IMG/VR virus record: IMGVR_UViG_3300018080_000001
Location: 1 to 64,000 of that record
Strand: one strand, 5' to 3'
From: a virus
DNA: 64,000 bases
The position numbers and the translations under genes were made by a program. Under the pieces are notes generated by a model. That model did no database searches and was not told where the DNA came from. It was given only the letters and a program-made list of their open reading frames with translations. Every line of letters begins with the position of its first letter. Positions within the stretch are counted from its first letter, which is position 1. Of this stretch, positions 1,130 through 14,332 are shown piece by piece.

Positions 1130-1189
1130 TATAAATAAGAAGGAGGGGCTCCAACAAAGGGGAGCACAAAACCCAAGTGGAGCCCCTCC
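1130..1189 (-). terminator. Rho-independent terminator-like hairpin (12-bp stem, large loop)
   Basis: ggaggggctcca (1142-1153) / tggagcccctcc (1178-1189) perfect inverted repeat, followed on the minus strand by UUCUUAUUU. Confidence 0.65.
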
Positions 1190-1299
1190 CCACACAGAAA
1201 GGAGGTTGTCAGGTCTATTATAATATACGATTATAAAAATATAAAGCTTTTAGTTATATTTTAAATAAAAAGACCCGAGTAGAAAATAGTAGAAACTAC

Positions 1300-1563
1300 T
1301 CAGGTCTTAGAGGGTATTCCAGCTCTTCCGCCGAGAATACGTGTAACATACTTATAATCTAGAGAATGGTCAACAGAATTGCTTATAAATAGGGAATAAA
1401 AAGTATACATGATTGTCTTGGGTGGATGCTTCCATACTTCCTTAGTTATATAATCAGAGAGATATATTTTAGAAACTTTACACAAAGTATATAAACTAAT
1501 GTGTATAAGTTCATTAAAGTCTTTATTAAATTTGTATCTAGTGTTTTCTCCTACAGATTTCAT
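1300..1563 (-). CDS. MKxxG-family microprotein
   Basis: Starts MKSVGE. Confidence 0.6.
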   Translation of the reverse strand: MKSVGENTRYKFNKDFNELIHISLYTLCKVSKIYLSDYITKEVWKHPPKTIMYTFYSLFISNSVDHSLDYKYVTRILGGRAGIPSKT

Positions 1564-1580
1564 TTTTTATGGAAGTCCTG

Positions 1581-1745
1581 TTAAATTTTTGTACACCGTG
1601 TCATAAATCGTATCATAGAATTCATCGTCTCTAATTTCAAATAACGCATAAGATATGCAGTTATCTCAGGAGAAATAAAAAACTCAAGTGAAGTATCAAA
1701 ATAAAAGAAGTCTTCTCTATCTATAATTTCACCCAGTACTTTCAT
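1581..1745 (-). CDS. MKxxG-family microprotein, 54 aa, not in ORF track (possibly frameshifted)
   Basis: Manual translation MKVLGEIIDREDFFYFDTSLEFFISPEITAYLMRYLKLETMNSMIRFMTRCTKI*. Confidence 0.5.
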   Translation of the reverse strand: MKVLGEIIDREDFFYFDTSLEFFISPEITAYLMRYLKLETMNSMIRFMTRCTKI

Positions 1746-1747
1746 AA

Positions 1748-1984
1748 CTACAAATCTATAGTATCCTCAAGCAAATTACGTCCTAAAGGATACCCTATAA
1801 TACTCCAGATAAAAGTATTAAGAGATTCATAAATAGATCTAGAAATGCTAGCATGACTATCAAAATCTATTAAGCTAACTACATGGCATACATCTTTTAT
1901 CCATTTTAAAGCATTCTTATCTTTGTATTTAGAGTCATATCTACCTATAAAATTGTATGCAACAGCTTTACCCAAGTATTTCAT
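1748..1984 (-). CDS. MKxxG-family microprotein
   Basis: Starts MKYLGK. Confidence 0.65.
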   Translation of the reverse strand: MKYLGKAVAYNFIGRYDSKYKDKNALKWIKDVCHVVSLIDFDSHASISRSIYESLNTFIWSIIGYPLGRNLLEDTIDL

Positions 1985-1988
1985 ATTA

Positions 1989-2219
1989 TCACCCGATATA
2001 ATTATAAATATGGGATAAAGTAGATAGTCTTATAAAATATGTTATTTCATCAAAATACCAATGTTTACTTATGAAATAAATTCTTACACTTCTAAAAACA
2101 TCCTCCTGCATGGACACTAGTACTAACTTACCCGCGACATCTTCATCCCAGAAACATAGAAACCAAATATTCTGGTACCCATCGGGTAAGTCCCTAACCG
2201 TGTCGCCCAAAATTTTCAT
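1989..2219 (-). CDS. MKxxG-family microprotein
   Basis: Internal ATG at 2219 gives MKILGD. Confidence 0.6.
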   Translation of the reverse strand: MKILGDTVRDLPDGYQNIWFLCFWDEDVAGKLVLVSMQEDVFRSVRIYFISKHWYFDEITYFIRLSTLSHIYNYIG

Positions 2220-2221
2220 TA

Positions 2222-2437
2222 CTAAAATTCCCACCATATTATAGAATTAATATTACGACCACAGCACTCATAAATTAAAAAATCAACGGATCTTACGGAT
2301 ATATCCAAAAATATGGGAAAAACACTAGATACTATATTTTCGGATACCAAATATCTTATAGACTTAGTTGAAACTCGTGAAAAAGAAACCGACCCATATT
2401 CTATTTGCATAGCAAGTTTTTTACCTAATAATCTCAT
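2222..2437 (-). CDS. MKxxG-family microprotein
   Basis: ATG at 2437 gives MRLLGK and overlaps the upstream gene's stop. Confidence 0.6.
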   Translation of the reverse strand: MRLLGKKLAMQIEYGSVSFSRVSTKSIRYLVSENIVSSVFPIFLDISVRSVDFLIYECCGRNINSIIWWEF

Positions 2438-2649
2438 TCTATAATACAACCATTTCCTACCTGCAATTCAATAATATTTTCTACCCAGAAAAAAATCAAA
2501 GCACCAACTGTTTTATCTACAAAGACTTTTATAAGATAATAATAAATAAATTTAGAAACTGAAATATCAAAATAAAAATCAAGTTCATTAGCAAGTACGG
2601 AATTTTCGTACTCTAACTGTAAATCAAGCTCTTTACCAATAACCTTCAT
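2434..2649 (-). CDS. MKxxG-family microprotein
   Basis: Starts MKVIGK immediately after the 36-bp linker repeat. Confidence 0.65.
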   Translation of the reverse strand: MKVIGKELDLQLEYENSVLANELDFYFDISVSKFIYYYLIKVFVDKTVGALIFFWVENIIELQVGNGCIIE

Positions 2650-2682
2650 ATTTTACACTGCCTATACTTTCAGTCTAATTTT
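2647..2682 (-). repeat. 36-bp gene-junction linker repeat, copy 1 (AAAATTAGACTGAAAGTATAGGCAGTGTAAAATATG)
   Basis: Identical to 5759-5794; near-identical to 5230-5265; partial copies at 4671-4690 and 4968-5000. Confidence 0.9.
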
Positions 2683-2862
2683 TATCGTGTATTTTAAATC
2701 ATAAAAAAGATATTCATTTATACTACCAACTATACTAGCAGCTATAACTTTGTAGTATATATTCCAACAAAGTTCGTCTTCTACTTTATTAATAATAGTA
2801 TTAAAAACATGTCCACGAATACTTTCAATATCATATTTAATCAAATTACCCGAAGTTTTCAC
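2662..2862 (-). CDS. MKxxG-family microprotein
   Basis: GTG start MKTSGN; ends KIRLKV* inside the linker. Confidence 0.6.
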   Translation of the reverse strand: MKTSGNLIKYDIESIRGHVFNTIINKVEDELCWNIYYKVIAASIVGSINEYLFYDLKYTIKIRLKV

Positions 2863-3064
2863 GACTCTCCATCCTATAGTATATAGTCTGATATGTAAAA
2901 TCTGATAACGTATTAAATATTAACTCAGATATTCTAAGTGTTCTCCATTCCACAGGAAATCGAATATTCCACATAAGAGAAGAAGAAACATTGTCAGAAA
3001 CATACTTTTTTATTTCATGAGTATAGAACATGTCCAAAGACTTAGATTTTCCCATGGTTTTCAT
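2846..3064 (-). CDS. MKxxG-family microprotein
   Basis: Starts MKTMGK. Confidence 0.65.
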   Translation of the reverse strand: MKTMGKSKSLDMFYTHEIKKYVSDNVSSSLMWNIRFPVEWRTLRISELIFNTLSDFTYQTIYYRMESRENFG

Positions 3065-3073
3065 AGTATTAAA

Positions 3074-3286
3074 TTACTTATTCAAAATAGCCCTAAATAT
3101 TAATCTTTGATATGGTTTTATAGAGTCTGCCCCAAACATATTAATATTCCTCCAAATACGATTTACCCAGCCTATTTTATATTTCAGCCGGTAGCAATCA
3201 TTAGTATGTCTATTATCCTGAAGAAATTCTTCATATAAATCTCTTTGCTTAATATTATTATCACATATTTTGCCGATATAAAGCAT
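3074..3286 (-). CDS. MKxxG-family microprotein
   Basis: Starts MLYIGK. Confidence 0.6.
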   Translation of the reverse strand: MLYIGKICDNNIKQRDLYEEFLQDNRHTNDCYRLKYKIGWVNRIWRNINMFGADSIKPYQRLIFRAILNK

Positions 3287-3290
3287 AATA

Positions 3291-3518
3291 TTAATCCTCA
3301 GAAACCACTATATCCTGCTGATACAAAGGAATACTGGCAACAGGTTTCTCCGGACTAAGAATTATGGTAGAACTCGTGGTGCTCCTATATTCTCTACCAT
3401 TTAAAAAACACTCACAAGTACAATATGTTGAAGGATTTTCCTTACCCTCTATGTCAGTATAAAATGGACTTCCACAATGAGGGCACTGACCAATTTCTAG
3501 GATTCTCGCAGTAATCAT
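3291..3518 (-). CDS. Small zinc-ribbon protein
   Basis: CPHC...CTCEC motifs. Confidence 0.6.
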   Translation of the reverse strand: MITARILEIGQCPHCGSPFYTDIEGKENPSTYCTCECFLNGREYRSTTSSTIILSPEKPVASIPLYQQDIVVSED

Positions 3519-3542
3519 GTTTATACCTCAAAATACTGTGTT

Positions 3543-3752
3543 TTATCCAAATGGTGACCATAATAAATGGTGTAACGAAGTACTTATTACAGATCTTACA
3601 GAATTCTCTGAAAAATCTGTTGCGACTGAATTACTAACTAAATTCCTAGCTGAGTATCTAACTGAATATCTAGAATACCTAACTAAATCACTAACGGAAT
3701 GCTTAACTGAATAATAAACTGAATTCCTAACTTGTTTTCCTATATTTTTCAT
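3543..3752 (-). CDS. MKxxG-family microprotein with SVxx tetrapeptide repeats
   Basis: MKNIGKQVRNSV... Confidence 0.7.
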   Translation of the reverse strand: MKNIGKQVRNSVYYSVKHSVSDLVRYSRYSVRYSARNLVSNSVATDFSENSVRSVISTSLHHLLWSPFG

Positions 3753-3961
3753 TTTACTATTGCATCTTCAGCTAAAGTCCAAACTAAATAACTAACTGAA
3801 TCCCAAACTGAATACCTAACTAAATTAACAACTGAATCACTAACTGAATTACTAACTGAATTACTAACTGAATTACTAACCAAATTCATAACTGAATCAC
3901 TAACTGAATCCTTAACTGAATCCCTTACTAACTCTTTAACACTCTTACCCACGGCTTTCAT
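3749..3961 (-). CDS. MKxxG-family microprotein with SVxx repeats
   Basis: MKAVGKSV...; ATGA overlaps with both neighbours. Confidence 0.7.
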   Translation of the reverse strand: MKAVGKSVKELVRDSVKDSVSDSVMNLVSNSVSNSVSNSVSDSVVNLVRYSVWDSVSYLVWTLAEDAIVK

Positions 3962-4230
3962 TTTTCTGTACTTTCTTTAATTGAATTATAAAATAAAGCC
4001 CTAGCTGAGTAGCTAACTGAATCACTAACTGAATCCCAAACTGAATCAAAAACGGAATCACTAACTGAATCCCAAACTGAATCAAAAACGGAATCAAAAA
4101 CGGAATCACTAACTGAATCCCAAACTGAATACCAAACTGAATCCCAAACTGAATCCCAAACTGAATCACTAACTGAAACCCTAGCCGAATCCCCAACTAA
4201 ACCCGCAACACTCTTACCTATAATTTTCAT
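3958..4230 (-). CDS. MKxxG-family microprotein with SVWD/SVSD/SVFD repeats
   Basis: MKIIGKSV... Confidence 0.7.
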   Translation of the reverse strand: MKIIGKSVAGLVGDSARVSVSDSVWDSVWDSVWYSVWDSVSDSVFDSVFDSVWDSVSDSVFDSVWDSVSDSVSYSARALFYNSIKESTEK

Positions 4231-4427
4231 TGTTCTATATTTTCTTTAAATGAAGGACTAACTGAATACAAAACTGAATTCCTAACTGAATTCCTAACTG
4301 AAGACAAAACTGAATACCAAACTAAATTCCAAACTGAAACTCTAACTAAATTAACAACTGAATCAATAACTGAATTCCTAACTGAATACCTAACTGAATT
4401 CCTAACTTGTTTTCCTATATTTTTCAT
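4227..4427 (-). CDS. MKxxG-family microprotein with SVxx repeats
   Basis: First 12 aa identical to 3543..3752. Confidence 0.7.
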   Translation of the reverse strand: MKNIGKQVRNSVRYSVRNSVIDSVVNLVRVSVWNLVWYSVLSSVRNSVRNSVLYSVSPSFKENIEQ

Positions 4428-4439
4428 TTTATTAAGACC

Positions 4440-4673
4440 TCATAAATTTTTATTAAAATATATATCGTGAAAGATATATTCGAAATGAGTACTACTGGGT
4501 ATAGCCCTTTCCACAAGACTCTTGATTTTATTATAAATATCTATATTTACCTTTAATATAGGATTGGTTATATAAAGTATACCCAGAGCACCAACTGTAT
4601 GAGTACTCTCATACGCAAAAATCTTAATAGCTTGATCGCAGACATTAATTTTTGTCAATCCTAAATCCTTCAT
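4440..4673 (-). CDS. MKxxG-family microprotein (MKDLGL subtype)
   Basis: Paralog of 4993..5232; follows a half linker. Confidence 0.65.
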   Translation of the reverse strand: MKDLGLTKINVCDQAIKIFAYESTHTVGALGILYITNPILKVNIDIYNKIKSLVERAIPSSTHFEYIFHDIYFNKNL

Positions 4674-4690
4674 ATTTTACACTGCCTATA
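4671..4690 (-). repeat. Linker repeat, 3' half (TATAGGCAGTGTAAAATATG)
   Basis: Exact match to the 3' part of the 2647-2682 linker. Confidence 0.85.
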
Positions 4691-4934
4691 TTTCAAAATA
4701 AGCTACCCATGTATCAAGCACAATTTCCAAATTCATAAAAATAAAATCATTGATATTATTCCAGATAATTATTTCCAGGGGCTCTGTAAGAGCATATTCT
4801 ATAGCACAAACCAAAGTAGTCTTACCCGCCTCAACACACAATGCATCGACCATGCTCCAAATACCATGTTTATAGTCATTGGTTACAAAGTATGTATCTA
4901 TGTAATCTTTTCTATTTTTTCCTAAGTGTTTCAC
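4686..4934 (-). CDS. MKxxG-family microprotein
   Basis: GTG start MKHLGK. Confidence 0.6.
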   Translation of the reverse strand: MKHLGKNRKDYIDTYFVTNDYKHGIWSMVDALCVEAGKTTLVCAIEYALTEPLEIIIWNNINDFIFMNLEIVLDTWVAYFEI

Positions 4935-4992
4935 GTTATATAATATACCGTATTAACTTTATCAAGTATTTTATACTCCACATATATTCAGT

Positions 4993-5232
4993 CTAATTTT
5001 TTTCATCAGTATATAAACTAAAAAATATATCATAAACTGTAGCCTCTAAATATGTAAAAGAACTAACACGCTCTTTTAATTTTTCTTCAACCTCTTCATA
5101 TATATCTATCTTCAAGGGCAAATAAGTATTGACTACAAACATAAAACCCAGAGTAGAATTATAGTTCCAATGCGGAACTATCTTAACACCATTATCATGA
5201 ATATACGTAGATACTAGTCCTAAATCCTTCAT
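4993..5232 (-). CDS. MKxxG-family microprotein (MKDLGL subtype)
   Basis: Flanked by linker copies on both sides. Confidence 0.65.
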   Translation of the reverse strand: MKDLGLVSTYIHDNGVKIVPHWNYNSTLGFMFVVNTYLPLKIDIYEEVEEKLKERVSSFTYLEATVYDIFFSLYTDEKN

Positions 5233-5265
5233 ATTCTATACTGCCTATACTTTCAGTCTAATTTT
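5230..5265 (-). repeat. 36-bp linker repeat copy (2 mismatches)
   Basis: catattctatactgcctatactttcagtctaatttt. Confidence 0.9.
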
Positions 5266-5417
5266 TCATATAAATCTTCAGTAATCAAAGTTGCTTCATA
5301 TAAACTACCGCCTTCTGAGATTGTAAATAGCATTATCCTTATTTCAACCCGAGTATTCATGTAATCTTCAGTACGAACATGATCAGTTATACTAATTCTG
5401 TTTCCTGGTTTTTTCAT
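5253..5417 (-). CDS. MKxxG-family microprotein, 54 aa, not in ORF track
   Basis: Manual translation MKKPGNRISITDHVRTEDYMNTRVEIRIMLFTISEGGSLYEATLITEDLYEKLD*. Confidence 0.6.
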   Translation of the reverse strand: MKKPGNRISITDHVRTEDYMNTRVEIRIMLFTISEGGSLYEATLITEDLYEKLD

Positions 5418-5421
5418 TATA

Positions 5422-5613
5422 CTAAGACTGGTTTTTATCTTTATTCAAACCTGATAATTTACTATTAAAATTTTCAGTTTCTTTTTCAATTTCGTTTACA
5501 ATATTTTTTGTAATTATTCTATTTTTACGAATGCTAAAACCTAAAAAAATAACAACAAATATCTGAACAAATAAAAATAAAAAACTAAACAATTCTAAAT
5601 AGCTTCGCATCAC
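5422..5613 (-). CDS. Small single-pass membrane protein
   Basis: Hydrophobic N-terminus, charged coiled tail; AGGAGG RBS. Confidence 0.6.
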   Translation of the reverse strand: MMRSYLELFSFLFLFVQIFVVIFLGFSIRKNRIITKNIVNEIEKETENFNSKLSGLNKDKNQS

Positions 5614-5761
5614 TTAAAAACCTCCTAACAATTTTTTGTAATCCTTTTCACATTTTCTTCTAATAAATCTATACTCTTGGTAGAATCTTATAAATATATA
5701 CACAAGAGTACTATAAAAAAGAAAAATACAAATAAAAAAAAATAATTAAAAATAAATCCAT
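5614..5761 (-). pseudogene. Small membrane protein interrupted by a frameshift in a T-homopolymer
   Basis: As given it reads MDLFLIIFFYLYFSFL*. Removing one T from the T9 run (5734-5742) gives a 48-aa ORF whose stop abuts the next GTG. Confidence 0.45.
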
Positions 5762-5794
5762 ATTTTACACTGCCTATACTTTCAGTCTAATTTT
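5759..5794 (-). repeat. 36-bp linker repeat copy
   Basis: Identical to 2647-2682. Confidence 0.9.
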
Positions 5795-5945
5795 CCCAGA
5801 GATCTCTATACATTAAAGATTTGTTCCTTGCTATACTACACTTTAGTTCAATATGTATATGAATATATGCAGAAATTGAATTTGTTATATGCTTAGAAGT
5901 AGAAATATAAAAAGGAGGAGATACTTTTTTTCCCAGTGTTTTCAT
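5787..5945 (-). CDS. MKxxG-family microprotein, 52 aa, not in ORF track
   Basis: Manual translation MKTLGKKVSPPFYISTSKHITNSISAYIHIHIELKCSIARNKSLMYRDLWEN*. Confidence 0.6.
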   Translation of the reverse strand: MKTLGKKVSPPFYISTSKHITNSISAYIHIHIELKCSIARNKSLMYRDLWEN

Positions 5946-6060
5946 TTTTCAAGTTTGCTTTCAAATTCAAATAAAAAATCTCATGCCATTGTTCTGGTGA
6001 CAAAGCTCTGTTTTTATTTCTATGTTCTTCGTCATCAATTTTCCTCGTAGACACACACTC

Positions 6061-6435
6061 TTAAAACCCTTCACGCTCTACAGTATAAGGGTACATACCC
6101 TCGTCAATAGTATCCTCTTTATCCTCTATCTTGTCCTCAGCTATTTCTCCTGCGTCTTCCATCACGGTAATGGGGTTAGCCGTCCAAGAGACGTTGGCTG
6201 AGTTAACCATTAACCCGGCATCCGCTTCCGCCAAGGACACCGCCTCATGGATGCCACTGGCTTCTATCTCATAGCTCGCCAGAGTCTCCTGAGTATCCTG
6301 GTCAATAGCATCTACCTTGTACTTCCGTAGCACCAAATCTTCACCTTTGATAATTTTTGATACTTTTCTGTAGTCTACCATTTCGTGTTGCCCTCCCTGT
6401 ATTTTACTTTTCCGTCTTTGATTATCACAGTACAT
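6061..6435 (-). CDS. Acidic protein with basic leader (putative virion-internal); true start probably MVDYRKVSKIIKG
   Basis: RKVSKIIKG resembles the KRVAKIIKG leader of 8415..8858; GGAGG precedes the internal ATG. Confidence 0.6.
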   Translation of the reverse strand: MYCDNQRRKSKIQGGQHEMVDYRKVSKIIKGEDLVLRKYKVDAIDQDTQETLASYEIEASGIHEAVSLAEADAGLMVNSANVSWTANPITVMEDAGEIAEDKIEDKEDTIDEGMYPYTVEREGF

Positions 6436-6640
6436 CCTCTATTAGTTTATTCTTAATTACAACGCCAATGCTTTCAACATGCCCCCAAACTGATCCCCAC
6501 GAAGAACTACTAACTGGTCTATAAACTACGCGCGAAACACAATCCTTAATTACAAAATTCAAATTCATTGGTCTGTAGTGCCCTATATGATGTATGATAT
6601 CTCGAACAGAATTACCCGGTGTTTTCAACTTAGCTTCCAT
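6425..6640 (-). CDS. MKxxG-family microprotein
   Basis: (L)KTPGNSVRD...SWGSVWGHV. Confidence 0.55.
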   Translation of the reverse strand: MEAKLKTPGNSVRDIIHHIGHYRPMNLNFVIKDCVSRVVYRPVSSSSWGSVWGHVESIGVVIKNKLIEDVL

Positions 6641-6649
6641 GATATTAAA

Positions 6650-6817
6650 TTACGATGCTTTCCTGATGTTCTTCAATACTAAATTTTTATCCTTCATCTT
6701 ATCTAAGCTCTTCACTGCGTCTTCAAGTAAACTTCTAGATTTCTTAAATAAGTCTTTGGATTTTCTTAGTAGTTCTTCTGGGTTTATATCGTCTTCAATA
6801 ATATGTTGTTCACTCAT
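6650..6817 (-). CDS. Small coiled-coil protein, 55 aa, not in ORF track
   Basis: Manual translation MSEQHIIEDDINPEELLRKSKDLFKKSRSLLEDAVKSLDKMKDKNLVLKNIRKAS*. Confidence 0.55.
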   Translation of the reverse strand: MSEQHIIEDDINPEELLRKSKDLFKKSRSLLEDAVKSLDKMKDKNLVLKNIRKAS

Positions 6818-6848
6818 AATTTAGTTTCCATATCTCCCCCGCCAAAAA

Positions 6849-7280
6849 TTACGTGGCATACAATGTATCCAGTCTCTCCATCATTAAGCTCTCATCCATT
6901 TGTGCAGCTTCTTCCTGCGTCATCTCTTCAGTTACCACGCGGTTAACCAATTCAAAGTCATTGGGATTCAAGTCTTGTCCAAATTCATCTTTTACCTCTA
7001 GATTATATAGAATATTGCCTTCTTCCGTCTCCAGTGCATGTACGTTAATCCATCTATCGCCCGGAGATGGTGGAAACTTCTCATTCTCAAAAGGTCCGTA
7101 TAACGAAACTTTTGCCGCTATATCTTCTAAGTATGCAGGTTCCGGGGTGGCCTCAACACCCACTTCTGTTCCTTCCGGAGTTTCAAGTTCATATTCAATT
7201 GAAACTAAAAAAGGAAGACCTTCAACTGGTTTGTCCAACGCTTGGGCTATCCTTTTCATTCCTTTGTCCGATATACTCAT
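6849..7280 (-). CDS. Leader-bearing acidic protein (putative virion-internal)
   Basis: MSISDKGMKRIAQ leader followed by a strongly acidic body. Confidence 0.7.
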   Translation of the reverse strand: MSISDKGMKRIAQALDKPVEGLPFLVSIEYELETPEGTEVGVEATPEPAYLEDIAAKVSLYGPFENEKFPPSPGDRWINVHALETEEGNILYNLEVKDEFGQDLNPNDFELVNRVVTEEMTQEEAAQMDESLMMERLDTLYAT

Positions 7281-7285
7281 GGCTT

Positions 7286-7687
7286 TTAACTTTCTGCCGC
7301 CGCTAGTTCTAGCACGGACTCTATAGAAAAATAAAGAAGTGCACTAAATTTGTCCATAACCACATTTAATAAACCGCTATTATAATAAGTTTCTATAACA
7401 TCATTAGACAAACTTAAAAAATCTTGTGCCTCCGTATAAGACATATAAGATTGTTCCCATTCTTTCTTCCATAAACTCTCTATTTCAACTCTAACAAAAT
7501 TCCAAGCATCCAATATAGAAAACCAATAAATCCGTGTATGCTGTAAACCATTTATAATTGCGCTGTCATAAATAAATTTTAAAAAAACATTGCGGTCCAG
7601 AACCTTACGCCAAGAAGCATCCTTGTTATATAAGTCATCGCGCCAATCATTTACTAACTTGCTTACAGATTTACCCAGTTTCCTCAT
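7286..7687 (-). CDS. MKxxG-family protein with C-terminal extension
   Basis: MRKLGKSVSKLV...; tail MSYTEAQDFLSL resembles an HTH. Confidence 0.6.
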   Translation of the reverse strand: MRKLGKSVSKLVNDWRDDLYNKDASWRKVLDRNVFLKFIYDSAIINGLQHTRIYWFSILDAWNFVRVEIESLWKKEWEQSYMSYTEAQDFLSLSNDVIETYYNSGLLNVVMDKFSALLYFSIESVLELAAAES

Positions 7688-8414: not shown

Positions 8415-8858
8415 TTATTTCAAACCAAAATATTCCATGGGCTCCATACCAGAACCTTGTGCATCTTCGTACTCACTCATAAAATTATCGGCCATGACTT
8501 GTGCAGCTTCTTGACGAACAGGAACTGGAAATAATTTATGCCAAGGTAGATCGTAACCCTCTAATTGCTGTGCCCACATTTTTGCACCGGCTTCAGCCAA
8601 GTACATCCATATCCTTGGGGCCAGAGATGCATCATAAGTACCCTTCGTTAGTTTACGTATCAAATTCTTTTGTATAGATTTCTTCTGTCCATATAGCTCA
8701 TAGGTATTGTCAATATAGAGTACAAGGTCTTCTGCATCCGGCATATCCTCGGCTTCTTCTTCCATCGTCATTTCAGGTTCCGTAAGTTCTTCTTCCTGCC
8801 CTTTTATAATTTTTGCAACTCTTTTTAGACCTGCATCTGATATTCCTTTGGCTTTCAT
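8415..8858 (-). CDS. Leader-bearing putative virion-internal protein
   Basis: MKAKGISDAGLKRVAKIIKGQ leader plus LVLYIDN...YDASLAPRIWMYLAEAGAK domain. Confidence 0.7.
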   Translation of the reverse strand: MKAKGISDAGLKRVAKIIKGQEEELTEPEMTMEEEAEDMPDAEDLVLYIDNTYELYGQKKSIQKNLIRKLTKGTYDASLAPRIWMYLAEAGAKMWAQQLEGYDLPWHKLFPVPVRQEAAQVMADNFMSEYEDAQGSGMEPMEYFGLK

Positions 8859-9480: not shown

Positions 9481-10311
9481 CTACTTTATATTTAGAACTC
9501 TAGTTCTTAACGAATTTTTCTTAAAAGCTTCGAGTGACACATTTTTCATTATATCATCATCGGATAATGATTCTCCAGTCAAAACACGAAATGCTAAGTC
9601 GTTTAATATATTAAGAAGATACAAAACGCTGTTTACATCTTTTTCTTTAATAGACGCCAGTAAATCCCTGGCTTCTATTTCTAAATCCTCCCACTCTTCA
9701 CCGGCTTGAAATTCTTGTGCTTTCCTAACTTTTATAAATTCCGGTAAAATATTCATCGCATTTCCCTGTTTGTTAACCTGTACTGCTTTCTCCTGCTCTT
9801 CTGCACTCTCGCGCGTAGGATGCCTTCCCAGCAGCTTCTTACCGTCATGGGTATACAAACCCCACAGCTGTTTATCCGCAGGCTTGTCAGGGTCCTTATC
9901 CTTCTCGTCAAGCTTCTTTATAACTGCTTGTCGACGGGCACTTACACCGCTCGTAGGCTGCACAGTAAATTGTCCAGAAAGTTCGTAATCCGGTATTGAC
10001 TTAATACCCGTAGGAATTTCGCCACCCATCTGCAAATCTTCCTTGGGCATCAACACCGTGTCGGGAGAAGCACTATCATTCTCTACCACTACATATTCAT
10101 TATCATAAGTATCGTAGATAGACTCACCGACTTGAACCTCTTGTGGATTAACCGATACATCAGTTTCATACAGAGCTTGCGCATACCTGGTGGCTAATTC
10201 CTCAAATACTGATAGATCCGACATCCTTACTCTCCTGGCAAGTTTTCTCCCGTTCCCCCCTGGTTTTGAAAATAACTCCATGAATTCCTCGTCATCGTTA
10301 TTATATACCAT
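9481..10311 (-). CDS. Modular putative virion-internal protein
   Basis: Acidic modules separated by RYAQ / RRQA / RKAQ. Confidence 0.65.
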   Translation of the reverse strand: MVYNNDDEEFMELFSKPGGNGRKLARRVRMSDLSVFEELATRYAQALYETDVSVNPQEVQVGESIYDTYDNEYVVVENDSASPDTVLMPKEDLQMGGEIPTGIKSIPDYELSGQFTVQPTSGVSARRQAVIKKLDEKDKDPDKPADKQLWGLYTHDGKKLLGRHPTRESAEEQEKAVQVNKQGNAMNILPEFIKVRKAQEFQAGEEWEDLEIEARDLLASIKEKDVNSVLYLLNILNDLAFRVLTGESLSDDDIMKNVSLEAFKKNSLRTRVLNIK

Positions 10312-10539: not shown

Positions 10540-10590
10540 ATATAAGGATAATCATTTTATTTTATCTGTCAATATATTAAGATAAACTTT
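10540..10590 (-). promoter_or_regulatory. Sigma70-type promoter with extended TATTGACAG -35 element
   Basis: aaagtttatcttaataTATTGACAG; same motif at about 14295, 17764, 48624, 48681, 60047, 61429. Confidence 0.7.
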
Positions 10591-12838: not shown

Positions 12839-13010
12839 GTCAGTATCCTAATGTTTTTTACAAAAAACTTCTGTGCTTTTAATTAAAATCTAACACATTA
12901 TTGTATCTTATTTATCTCCGCTGTGGCACCAGCCTCTAGTAGTTTATCTATAGTTCTTTTTAGCCTTTTTAATTTATCTACTGCTTCCATTTTACTCTTG
13001 CTCCTTTGTG

Positions 13011-13193
13011 CTAGCCATTACCGAGTAATCTATTCATTAAATCATGCCATTTTTGAGCACGAGCATAATGACGTTCTGCCAAATCTTTATCATTACGTTC
13101 CATAGCTCGATTGCCATAATACAGCCAGCGGGTAGCCATTAGTTCAGCTTCTCGAAGTTGTTTACATTTCTTTGATGGTGATTTCATTTTCAT
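13011..13193 (-). CDS. Hypothetical protein
   Basis: 60-aa ORF. Confidence 0.5.
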   Translation of the reverse strand: MKMKSPSKKCKQLREAELMATRWLYYGNRAMERNDKDLAERHYARAQKWHDLMNRLLGNG

Positions 13194-13401
13194 TTAACCA
13201 CTCGCTTGCGTTTATGTATTTATTTGGTAAACAGTGAGTTAAATGGTCATCTATATACCAATGCTGACAATGATAACAGTATACCATTTCATAGCCTTCT
13301 AAAATTTCATCCGCATATAGCGCGGCGCATTTTTGGGAACAGAAAAAACTATTTTTTCGAGCCTTTTTACCTTGGCAATAATAGCATTTTGGTTTTTCCA
13401 T
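13162..13401 (-). CDS. Small zinc-finger protein
   Basis: CYYC...FCSQKC, CYHC. Confidence 0.6.
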   Translation of the reverse strand: MEKPKCYYCQGKKARKNSFFCSQKCAALYADEILEGYEMVYCYHCQHWYIDDHLTHCLPNKYINASEWLNENEITIKEM

Positions 13402-13419
13402 TTTACTCTTGCTCCTTGT

Positions 13420-13737
13420 TTATAGCCCAAGATCTTTTTTCTTTTCTTCATACTCGTCTTTGGTGAACTGGACGTTTAGGATCATGTATTTCTTATTTTT
13501 TTGATTGGCACAAAATAAACAGTCATCACAGTGGGAGCACTCATAGCAGTATAGCAGGTTAAATCCGTAGGCACAGTGAAAGCATTTAAAGCATTTCAGG
13601 CTAAAGCAGTTAAAGCAATTAGAGAAATAAGAGCATCGAGAACATCGAGAGCGGGTGGAATCTGCACTAGAAGTTAGCTGTCTAAACTTCGTTTGTAAGT
13701 CCGATAGACTACTTGCTAAAATTGCTTTTTTATTCAT
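13420..13737 (-). CDS. Cys-rich CxxC-repeat protein
   Basis: Many CxxC units ending KYMILNVQFTKDEYEEK. Confidence 0.65.
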   Translation of the reverse strand: MNKKAILASSLSDLQTKFRQLTSSADSTRSRCSRCSYFSNCFNCFSLKCFKCFHCAYGFNLLYCYECSHCDDCLFCANQKNKKYMILNVQFTKDEYEEKKKDLGL

Positions 13738-13993
13738 TTGTCTTTTGCTCCTTGTTTATACCAAAAACTTCATCCATACGTTTTTGCGTTTTTGGATCTG
13801 AGCTTTTATAGTACTCTTCAAAACAATTCTCGCAGACCGGCATCCCGTATGGGGATGGATCTAGATCGTAGCCTTCATCCTCCAAGAAAATAGTGCCACA
13901 TCCACAACGCATTTTTCCGGGTGGTAGACCTTCAGTCATTTCATAATATCGACATTCTGCCGCATCTTCTAAACTCTCTAGAAAGTCTTTCAT
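13730..13993 (-). CDS. Small zinc-binding protein
   Basis: CGCG...CENC. Confidence 0.6.
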   Translation of the reverse strand: MKDFLESLEDAAECRYYEMTEGLPPGKMRCGCGTIFLEDEGYDLDPSPYGMPVCENCFEEYYKSSDPKTQKRMDEVFGINKEQKTNE

Positions 13994-14022
13994 TTTACTC
14001 TTGCTCCTTGTTTTTGCCTTGT

Positions 14023-14226
14023 TTATAGAAGCTCATAAATAGCATCAGCAACAGGTCTCCATAAAGTAGGAGTAATTACGCCTTGCTCTTGTTTAAGCAG
14101 ACGTTTTGCAGCTTTACGAGCACAGGCCCAATCAATATTGACTACTGATGATGAATAGTTTTTAGTCTCTTTAAATTGTTTCGCTAATTCTAAACCGGCA
14201 TTAACTGTTTGACTGAAAGTTCTCAT
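14023..14226 (-). CDS. Hypothetical early protein
   Basis: ATG at 14226 (MRTFSQ) follows AAGGAG. Confidence 0.6.
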   Translation of the reverse strand: MRTFSQTVNAGLELAKQFKETKNYSSSVVNIDWACARKAAKRLLKQEQGVITPTLWRPVADAIYELL

Positions 14227-14265
14227 TGTCCTCGCTCCTTGTTTTTTGCCGCTACCCGCTAGCGA

Positions 14266-14332
14266 CAATTATAAGGTAACGCAGATTTCTGTATCTGTCA
14301 ATATACTGAGATAACTTTTTTTATTTTTTTAT
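14266..14332 (-). promoter_or_regulatory. Sigma70-type promoter with A-tract UP element
   Basis: aaaaaaagttatctcagtaTATTGACAG...ttaccttataat. Confidence 0.75.

Follow-up and report, generated by a model that had tools for sequence, protein, structure and literature searches.

Repeated joints between small genes are common in large phages, but how such joints arose is rarely visible. In Cluster K mycobacteriophages, the start-associated sequences (SAS) and extended start-associated sequences (ESAS) are oriented short asymmetric repeats confined to non-structural small genes, and their function is suspected to be translational (PMC3203893). The promoter-early stem-loop elements (PeSLs) of T4-type phages, in turn, are near-identical short regulatory repeats placed between ORFans of a hyperplastic region (PMC2839356, PMC4122927). 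Here, we describe a 36-bp linker that recurs between the small genes of an uncultured phage and whose origin can be followed. The analyzed stretch, referred to as the window, comprises positions 1-64,000 of the virus record IMGVR_UViG_3300018080_000001 (170,099 bp in total), and coordinates refer to the window unless they are given as genome positions. We read the linker as a degenerate copy of a gene junction of the array in which it lies, now used as a stop-and-restart spacer and perhaps as a weak promoter, and we put the probability of this reading at about one half.

Linker copies and their origin

The linker lies within an array of about 80 tightly packed minus-strand open reading frames (ORFs) of 25-133 codons (mostly 50-90), which covers positions 1300-7687 and genome positions 153808-169000. 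In 56 of these ORFs the product begins with M-K/R-x-x-G, usually MKxLGK. Sub-array A (1300-7687, minus strand), composed of small MKxxGK ORFs, holds all the in-window linker copies, whereas sub-array B (genome 153808-169000) is headed by two tandem copies of a diverged type. Every copy sits on the minus strand, on which all the genes of this region are coded. Two exact copies of the 36-mer AAAATTAGACTGAAAGTATAGGCAGTGTAAAATATG lie at 2647-2682 and 5759-5794, and a third, at 5230-5265, has two mismatches, since TATAGAAT replaces TGTAAAAT; shuffled sequence yielded no match to the 36-mer. These positions and identities agree with the first-pass annotation of the window, and a genome-wide scan revealed four further copies, two of them outside the window, which gives a total of seven: three full type I copies, one half copy and three diverged type II relatives. 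The half copy (4671-4695) reads TGAAA-TATAGGCAGTGTAAAATATG, is devoid of the AAATTAGAC block and matches the linker at 20/20 positions over 4671-4690 and at 25/26, with one gap, when followed to 4695. The type II relative in the window (4967-5000; AAAATTAGACTG..GAGTATAAAAT) has the form AAAATTAGACTG - 11 nt - GAGTATAAAATA. Both had been listed as partial or degenerate copies, at 4671-4690 and 4968-5000, and both are real with the extents given here, the latter without an ATG; the next gene start, a GTG at 4934, lies 58 nt downstream. The two tandem type II copies beyond the window, at genome positions ~169051-169082 and 168996-169028, occupy the only true intergenic gap (123 nt) at the head of sub-array B.

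Most of the copies end one ORF and open the next. At 2647-2682, the upstream ORF 2662-2862 stops at the last TAG of the linker, whose terminal ATG opens ORF 2434-2649 (MKVIGK...). At 5759-5794, ORF 5787-5945 stops at the first TAG, and the ATG (5761) opens an ORF of merely 16 codons. At 5230-5265, ORF 5253-5417 stops at the TGA and the ATG starts ORF 4993-5232 (MKDLGL...), which itself runs to the first TAG of the type II relative at 4967-5000. At the half copy, ORF 4686-4934 stops at the TAG that corresponds to the last one, and the ATG starts ORF 4440-4673 (MKDLGL...). The first-pass annotation had assigned upstream genes to stops in all three frames, correctly in every instance. Two codons upstream of the ATG there is also an in-frame TAA, the fourth stop, so that in the four type I copies, counting the half copy, translation of the downstream ORF could not begin any earlier than at this ATG.

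The DNA homology between the copies ends within 24-41 bp, and no Pfam or PHROG family was found for the ORFs flanking the linker. The proteins on either side are unrelated, as had been claimed for most of them, except for the pair ORF 4440-4673 and ORF 4993-5232 (34% identical). The claim overlooked, however, that three of the upstream ORFs have related C-terminal tails if the length of an A-run is allowed to differ: RDLWE(K)LD, EDLYEKLD and YTDEK(LD).

These tails are the starting point for the proposed origin of the linker. Its first 13 bases (GAAAAATTAGACTGA) would represent an old C-terminal tail, E-K-L-D, with its TGA stop, and the start codon overlapping that stop would have mutated to CTG and died. 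The bases that follow the CTG, AAA GT. ATA GGC, would encode K-(V)-I-G, the beginning of a family gene otherwise lost or partly duplicated, and the last 12 bases (GTGTAAAAT-ATG) would be the A/U-rich start region of the next gene with its real ATG. In the test of this origin, the CTG of the linker was aligned to the ATG of the family genes over 24 anchored positions. The 5′ half of the linker showed a mean identity of 11.96/24 to the 56 family starts, compared with 7.31 ± 2.14 for random ATGs, and the best family match, gene 167956, reached 20/24, while the maximum among 3000 random sites was 14. The region upstream of gene 167956 has the layout of an intact version of the junction, with GAA AAA TTA GAA TGA (EKLE*), an ATGA overlap and ATG AAA ATC ATA GGC. 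The tail of ORF 5253-5417, GAA AAA TTA GAC TGA (EKLD*), parallels it, and this ORF (...EDLYEKLD*) keeps the tail in the original frame. ORFs 5787-5945 (...RDLWEN*) and 4993-5232 (...YTDEKN*) carry the same tail with an A-run of 4 or 7 instead of 5, and because the tail is thereby shifted, they end at the TAG. A related stub stands in the copy ending at 168996 (CTG CGT ATA TTA GGA GTA TAA), within which the 10 nt ATATTAGGAG directly repeat codons 3-6 of the following gene (168998) and supply the Shine-Dalgarno (SD) site of that gene, TAGGAG.

The same history may account for the stop codons in three frames, which had been taken for a universal terminator of any incoming ORF. Such an arrangement occurs by chance in 19% of random 33-mers of array composition and in 30% of motif shuffles, and a universal design is not supported. 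The TGA can be traced to the ancestral ATGA stop, since ORF 5253-5417 ends EKLD-TGA in the apparently ancestral frame. Judging from the alignment, the first TAG arises where the tail is read in a shifted frame and the last TAG represents frameshifted Ile-Gly codons, so that stops in all three frames would follow from a decayed gene junction together with A-run length differences produced by slippage. The case calls for caution before stops in all frames are taken as design. With its roots in the stop/start overlap of the array and in a duplicated gene-start stub, the linker also offers a concrete route from coding sequence to regulatory spacers and ribosome sites in arrays of fast-evolving genes.

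Function of the linker

The linker is not merely decaying. Although the paralogues starting at 4673 and 5232 share only 34% protein identity and their DNA is near-saturated with changes, they hardly differ from -20 to +17 around the ATG, which upholds the earlier claim that conservation acts on the nucleic acid and not on the protein. Across four lineages of copies, only 1 of the 21 columns in the blocks AAATTAGACTG and AGTRTAAAAT varies, compared with 8 of the 11 columns of the spacer between them, whose length is constant. Two blocks conserved at fixed spacing point to a constraint at the DNA level and make a bound protein likely. Their invariance makes a protein-binding role of the linker possible, whether as a promoter or as an operator, and a weak internal promoter is the most likely reason for the fixed bipartite geometry.

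We give roughly even odds that the main role of the linker is that of an intercistronic stop/restart region on a polycistronic transcript. On a long early transcript, ribosomes would stop at the in-frame stop, 12-25 nt before the ATG, and the unstructured A/U-rich 3′ half, together with a vestigial AGG (the relic of a Gly codon), would let translation restart at that ATG. The DNA of the linker is probably also bound by a protein, most simply by host RNA polymerase at a weak internal promoter, TAGACT-16-TAAAAT, that would feed genes further downstream. A stop/restart module had been proposed in the first-pass annotation, and this much of it stands: one ORF terminates in the linker, the earliest ATG available to the next is located there too, and the surrounding array is tightly coupled.

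Several observations weigh against this reading. The SD-like AGG of the linker is weak and stands at a distance of 11 nt from the ATG. Two type II copies are without an ATG and cannot act as start regions. The invariance of block 1 would not be expected of a pure relic and leaves some function of this block unexplained. The contrast between blocks and spacer (Fisher p = 1.3e-4) is computed over four lineages that are not independent samples. As for the promoter part, TAAAAT as a -10 box would put the transcription start inside codons 2-3 of the adjacent gene, so that a promoter at the linker could serve only genes further downstream. The sigma-70-like match (9/12) does not rise above shuffles in this AT-rich DNA, with 50 sites against 40.5 expected, and the obvious promoters of the phage belong to another class (TATATTGACAG).

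That the element is mainly an internal promoter, of the host sigma-70/sigma-A type or dependent on a phage factor, with AAATTAGACTG as the -35 box and TAAAAT as the -10 box, boosting the downstream array while the ATG is incidental, appears doubtful to us. The bipartite conservation, the fixed spacer length and the upstream A-tract would all suit it; TAGACT-16-TAAAAT fits TAnnnT, and a variant copy keeps TAGAAT. The tandem copies head sub-array B, where the TATATTGACAG promoter is absent, and the two copies without an ATG retain both blocks. The match to the consensus is, however, at chance level, the -10 box abuts or overlaps the ATG in 5/7 copies, and the half copy at 4671-4695 is perfectly conserved even though it has no -35 block. 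The motif is also absent from the nearest relative, which does have the TATATTGACAG class, and neither a phage sigma factor nor a single-subunit RNA polymerase was detected; a Sigma70_r2 search for the former gave no match, and neither did PF00940 for the latter, but the controls for PF00940 were silent too. A single-subunit (T7-like) promoter, considered on the likeness of AATTAG..TATAGG, was rejected, since the spacing is off by one and the type II copies have no TATA-G. The clear promoter class of the phage reads AAAAA..TTAnCTCAnTATATTGACAG-N16/17-TATGTT, in some cases with TATAAT, is followed by SD leaders and counts about 13 copies: on the minus strand at 10575, 14304, 17773, 48633, 48690, 60056 and 61438 of the window and at genome positions 146159, 146486, 153565 and 161380, and on the plus strand at genome positions 110200 and 110452. 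Its core, ATATTGACAG, is found four times in the nearest relative (IMGVR_UViG_3300017971_000008) and not at all in a control.

The first-pass annotation had also raised the possibility of an integron-like cassette system, and we weighed it together with a PeSL-like joint, in which cassettes would be excised, inserted and reshuffled at the 36-mers, by way of short homology or of a recombinase acting there. The copies that are 100% identical, the sharp edges of homology between unrelated ORFs and the single stub (K-V-I-G) preceding genes with different N-termini count in its favour, and T4-type phages provide a precedent in which homology below 50 bp suffices and mini-circles result (PMC2839356). 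We nevertheless regard it as improbable. Neither a tyrosine nor a serine recombinase was found in the genome; PF00589 gave no match in the complete 170-kb record with positive controls. The linker forms no stem-loop or terminator, and upstream ORFs read into it. Four or five independent assemblies, drawn from no fewer than three further samples, agree in gene order, which is a shallow test and weak evidence against shuffling given sequences that are ~99.99% identical. Relative to the window, these assemblies show solely a 36-bp deletion (4019-4054), a 12-bp deletion (3839-3850) and one single-nucleotide polymorphism; both deletions (ENA ERZ27256796 and ERZ27256773) sit in genes made of 12-bp repeats (DSVW type), whose proteins become 66 and 78 residues long instead of 70 and 90, and they are the only structural differences seen between samples. 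Three Logan contigs of SRR6963352 (L030, L033 and L034) begin or end inside the 36-mers at 5759-5794 and 2647-2682; instead of recombination junctions, we read these ends as breaks at a repeat longer than the assembler k-mer. The array is absent from every diverged relative found. The nearest relative (63% portal identity) has no MKxxGK genes and no linker motif, scans of IMG/VR with the exact and the degenerate motif returned only chance matches inside an epimerase-like ORF, and a metagenome scan recovered only the same phage. Protein-based locus searches brought no close relative for a comparison of cassettes, and homologues of a 233-aa protein lie in unrelated gene contexts. The linker opens no new class of mobile element.

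As an operator for either a host LexA-like regulator or a stoperator-like phage repressor, the linker would be bound at the imperfect dyad TTAGACT-N13-AGTRTAA, and this we hold to be very improbable. In each of the four lineages, the dyad arms are complementary at 6/7 positions, their spacing is fixed and a central TAT never varies; the spacing between the three conserved segments is about one helical turn, and the type I copies hold ACTG-N10-CAGT. The central mismatch is identical in every copy and was never corrected, though, and the CTG-N10-CAG spacing, on which a LexA-type operator had been suggested, is confined to three near-identical copies and missing from the diverged type II copies (GAG for CAG), which keep the blocks; it should be noted that the LexA consensus may not be that of the host. 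Just seven copies exist, in one gene family, no candidate regulator was found, and the apparently virulent nature of the phage also speaks against an operator. The inverted repeat reported earlier is present as an imperfect dyad, yet it is weak as RNA: the best hairpin has -4.4 kcal/mol (z = -0.74) and is not formed in the type II copies. With this nonsignificant fold and no Rfam match at the linker motif, an RNA hairpin or known RNA family was rejected. We also considered a portable 'plug-in' start module, which would unite a fixed-geometry protein site with a start codon derived from a duplicated gene 5′ end and would have spread by short-homology recombination before unrelated microgenes. 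We think it unlikely; if true, the linker would be a counterpart of PeSLs without the terminator, driving expression and at the same time marking the points of shuffling, in phages of a lineage not related to T4.

The array and the phage genome

The microgene array is lineage specific, and many of its products are built of 4-residue (D/N)SV(W/R) repeats. Its stop and start codons overlap as ATGA at 26 junctions, and SD-like sites precede 41% of the array genes, compared with 63% of the genes elsewhere. In the N-terminal family motif, the codons for Leu/Ile-Gly are themselves generally SD-like (TAGGA/TAGGT). Sub-array A ends at a GC-rich hairpin core with a T-run (1177-1193, minus strand), the only terminator-like site on the minus strand within the sub-array; the other minus-strand site of the scan lies upstream of it, at 9861-9882. 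No terminator-like site was seen at any linker copy, and no terminator was found ahead of the AT-rich block at 5940-6070. The 16-codon ORF opened by the linker at 5759-5794 (5711-5761, minus strand; MDLFLIIFFYLYFSFL) holds a T9 run that is identical across three assemblies. With one T less, it would become a 48-residue membrane-like ORF ending just before the SD site and start of ORF 5422-5613; the ORF split by the run could be a pseudogene, a slippery site or a real mini-ORF.

Other junction repeats of the genome are plain modules of SD site, spacer and ATG. A second one, TATAAACAAGGAGCAAGAGTAAAATG, precedes several small ORFs at 12990-14300 and is read in frame as KQGAR in some of them. The paralogous starts at 8858 and 9185 (ACTGTAGnnGGAGTGTAnAGCA-ATGAAAGCCAnnGGAATATC) have a common ribosome-binding site and N-terminal codons and resemble the 3′ half of the linker (AGTGTAAA). 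Between the AT-rich sub-arrays lie two GC-richer genes with strong SD sites, one at 301-1002 and the other at 2-265, running on to genome position ~169125. The C-terminal half of the first is shared with proteins of other phages, one of which has a match to a T4 gp9/10-like domain.

The record represents a circularly assembled, uncultured phage of 170 kb, which is also present in the samples ERZ27256796, ERZ27256773, JGI 3300017991 and SRR6963352. Its 124-bp 'terminal repeat', annotated as direct, is an assembly overlap; an independent metagenome contig (L013) crosses the record ends at 99.9% identity. Practically all of the ~280 ORFs are carried by the minus strand. They encode a family A DNA polymerase, DnaB-type and other helicases, an SbcC-like protein, a portal and a large terminase, while most of the large phage proteins matched no Pfam or PHROG family. 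No known phage is close: against INPHARED records, the DNA polymerase does not exceed 31% identity, and a megablast search of INPHARED for close relatives gave no match. The phage looks virulent, and no integrase was found.

Comparison with known systems

Integron cassettes are, like the array, small and mostly promoterless ORFs in the same orientation with a repeated, imperfectly palindromic joint; here, however, there is neither an integrase nor an attC-like extended hairpin, and the joint measures only 36 bp and apparently descends from coding sequence. In Cluster A mycobacteriophages, stoperators are the 13-bp sites to which the immunity repressor of temperate phages binds, and dozens of them are scattered over the genome. 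They share with the linker the form of oriented short repeats at gene boundaries, often overlapping stops and starts, but no repressor and no lysogeny genes were seen in this phage.

Like PeSLs (PMC2839356, PMC4122927), the linker lies between ORFans and combines a sigma-70-like bipartite layout with an A-rich tract upstream of it, although its 9/12 match does not exceed shuffles, and with 36 bp the linker is long enough for the short-homology recombination proposed for PeSLs; among the collinear, nearly identical assemblies, we saw no insertions or deletions with breakpoints in the linker. On three counts the linker is not a PeSL. It has no stem-loop terminator, and upstream ORFs end inside it; TAAAAT abuts or overlaps the ATG in the type I copies and the 168996 copy, with no leader or SD site between; and the phage, with its family A polymerase and DnaB-type helicase, is not of the T4 type.

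SAS and ESAS (PMC3203893) occur in one orientation directly before the starts of unrelated genes (mostly ATG for SAS), the upstream stop often falls inside the repeat, and ESAS have an imperfect inverted repeat with a variable spacer upstream and little support for an RNA hairpin. In the same manner, the four type I copies of the linker end in the start ATG of ORFs 2649, 4673, 5232 and 5761. SAS themselves (GGGATAGGAGCCC) carry a full AGGAG core 3-7 bp from the start (PMC3203893), whereas the linker has a vestigial AGGCAG with its AGG 11 nt away, and TAGGAG, at 6 nt from the ATG, is seen in the 168996 copy alone. The two are also unrelated in sequence, and the linker is confined to seven copies in one paralogous array, with a recognizable origin from a decayed gene start. 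By analogy, the closest functional parallels would be SAS/ESAS, with PeSLs as the other parallel. The kind of element is familiar; what is particular in this phage is that its origin from a decayed gene start can be traced.

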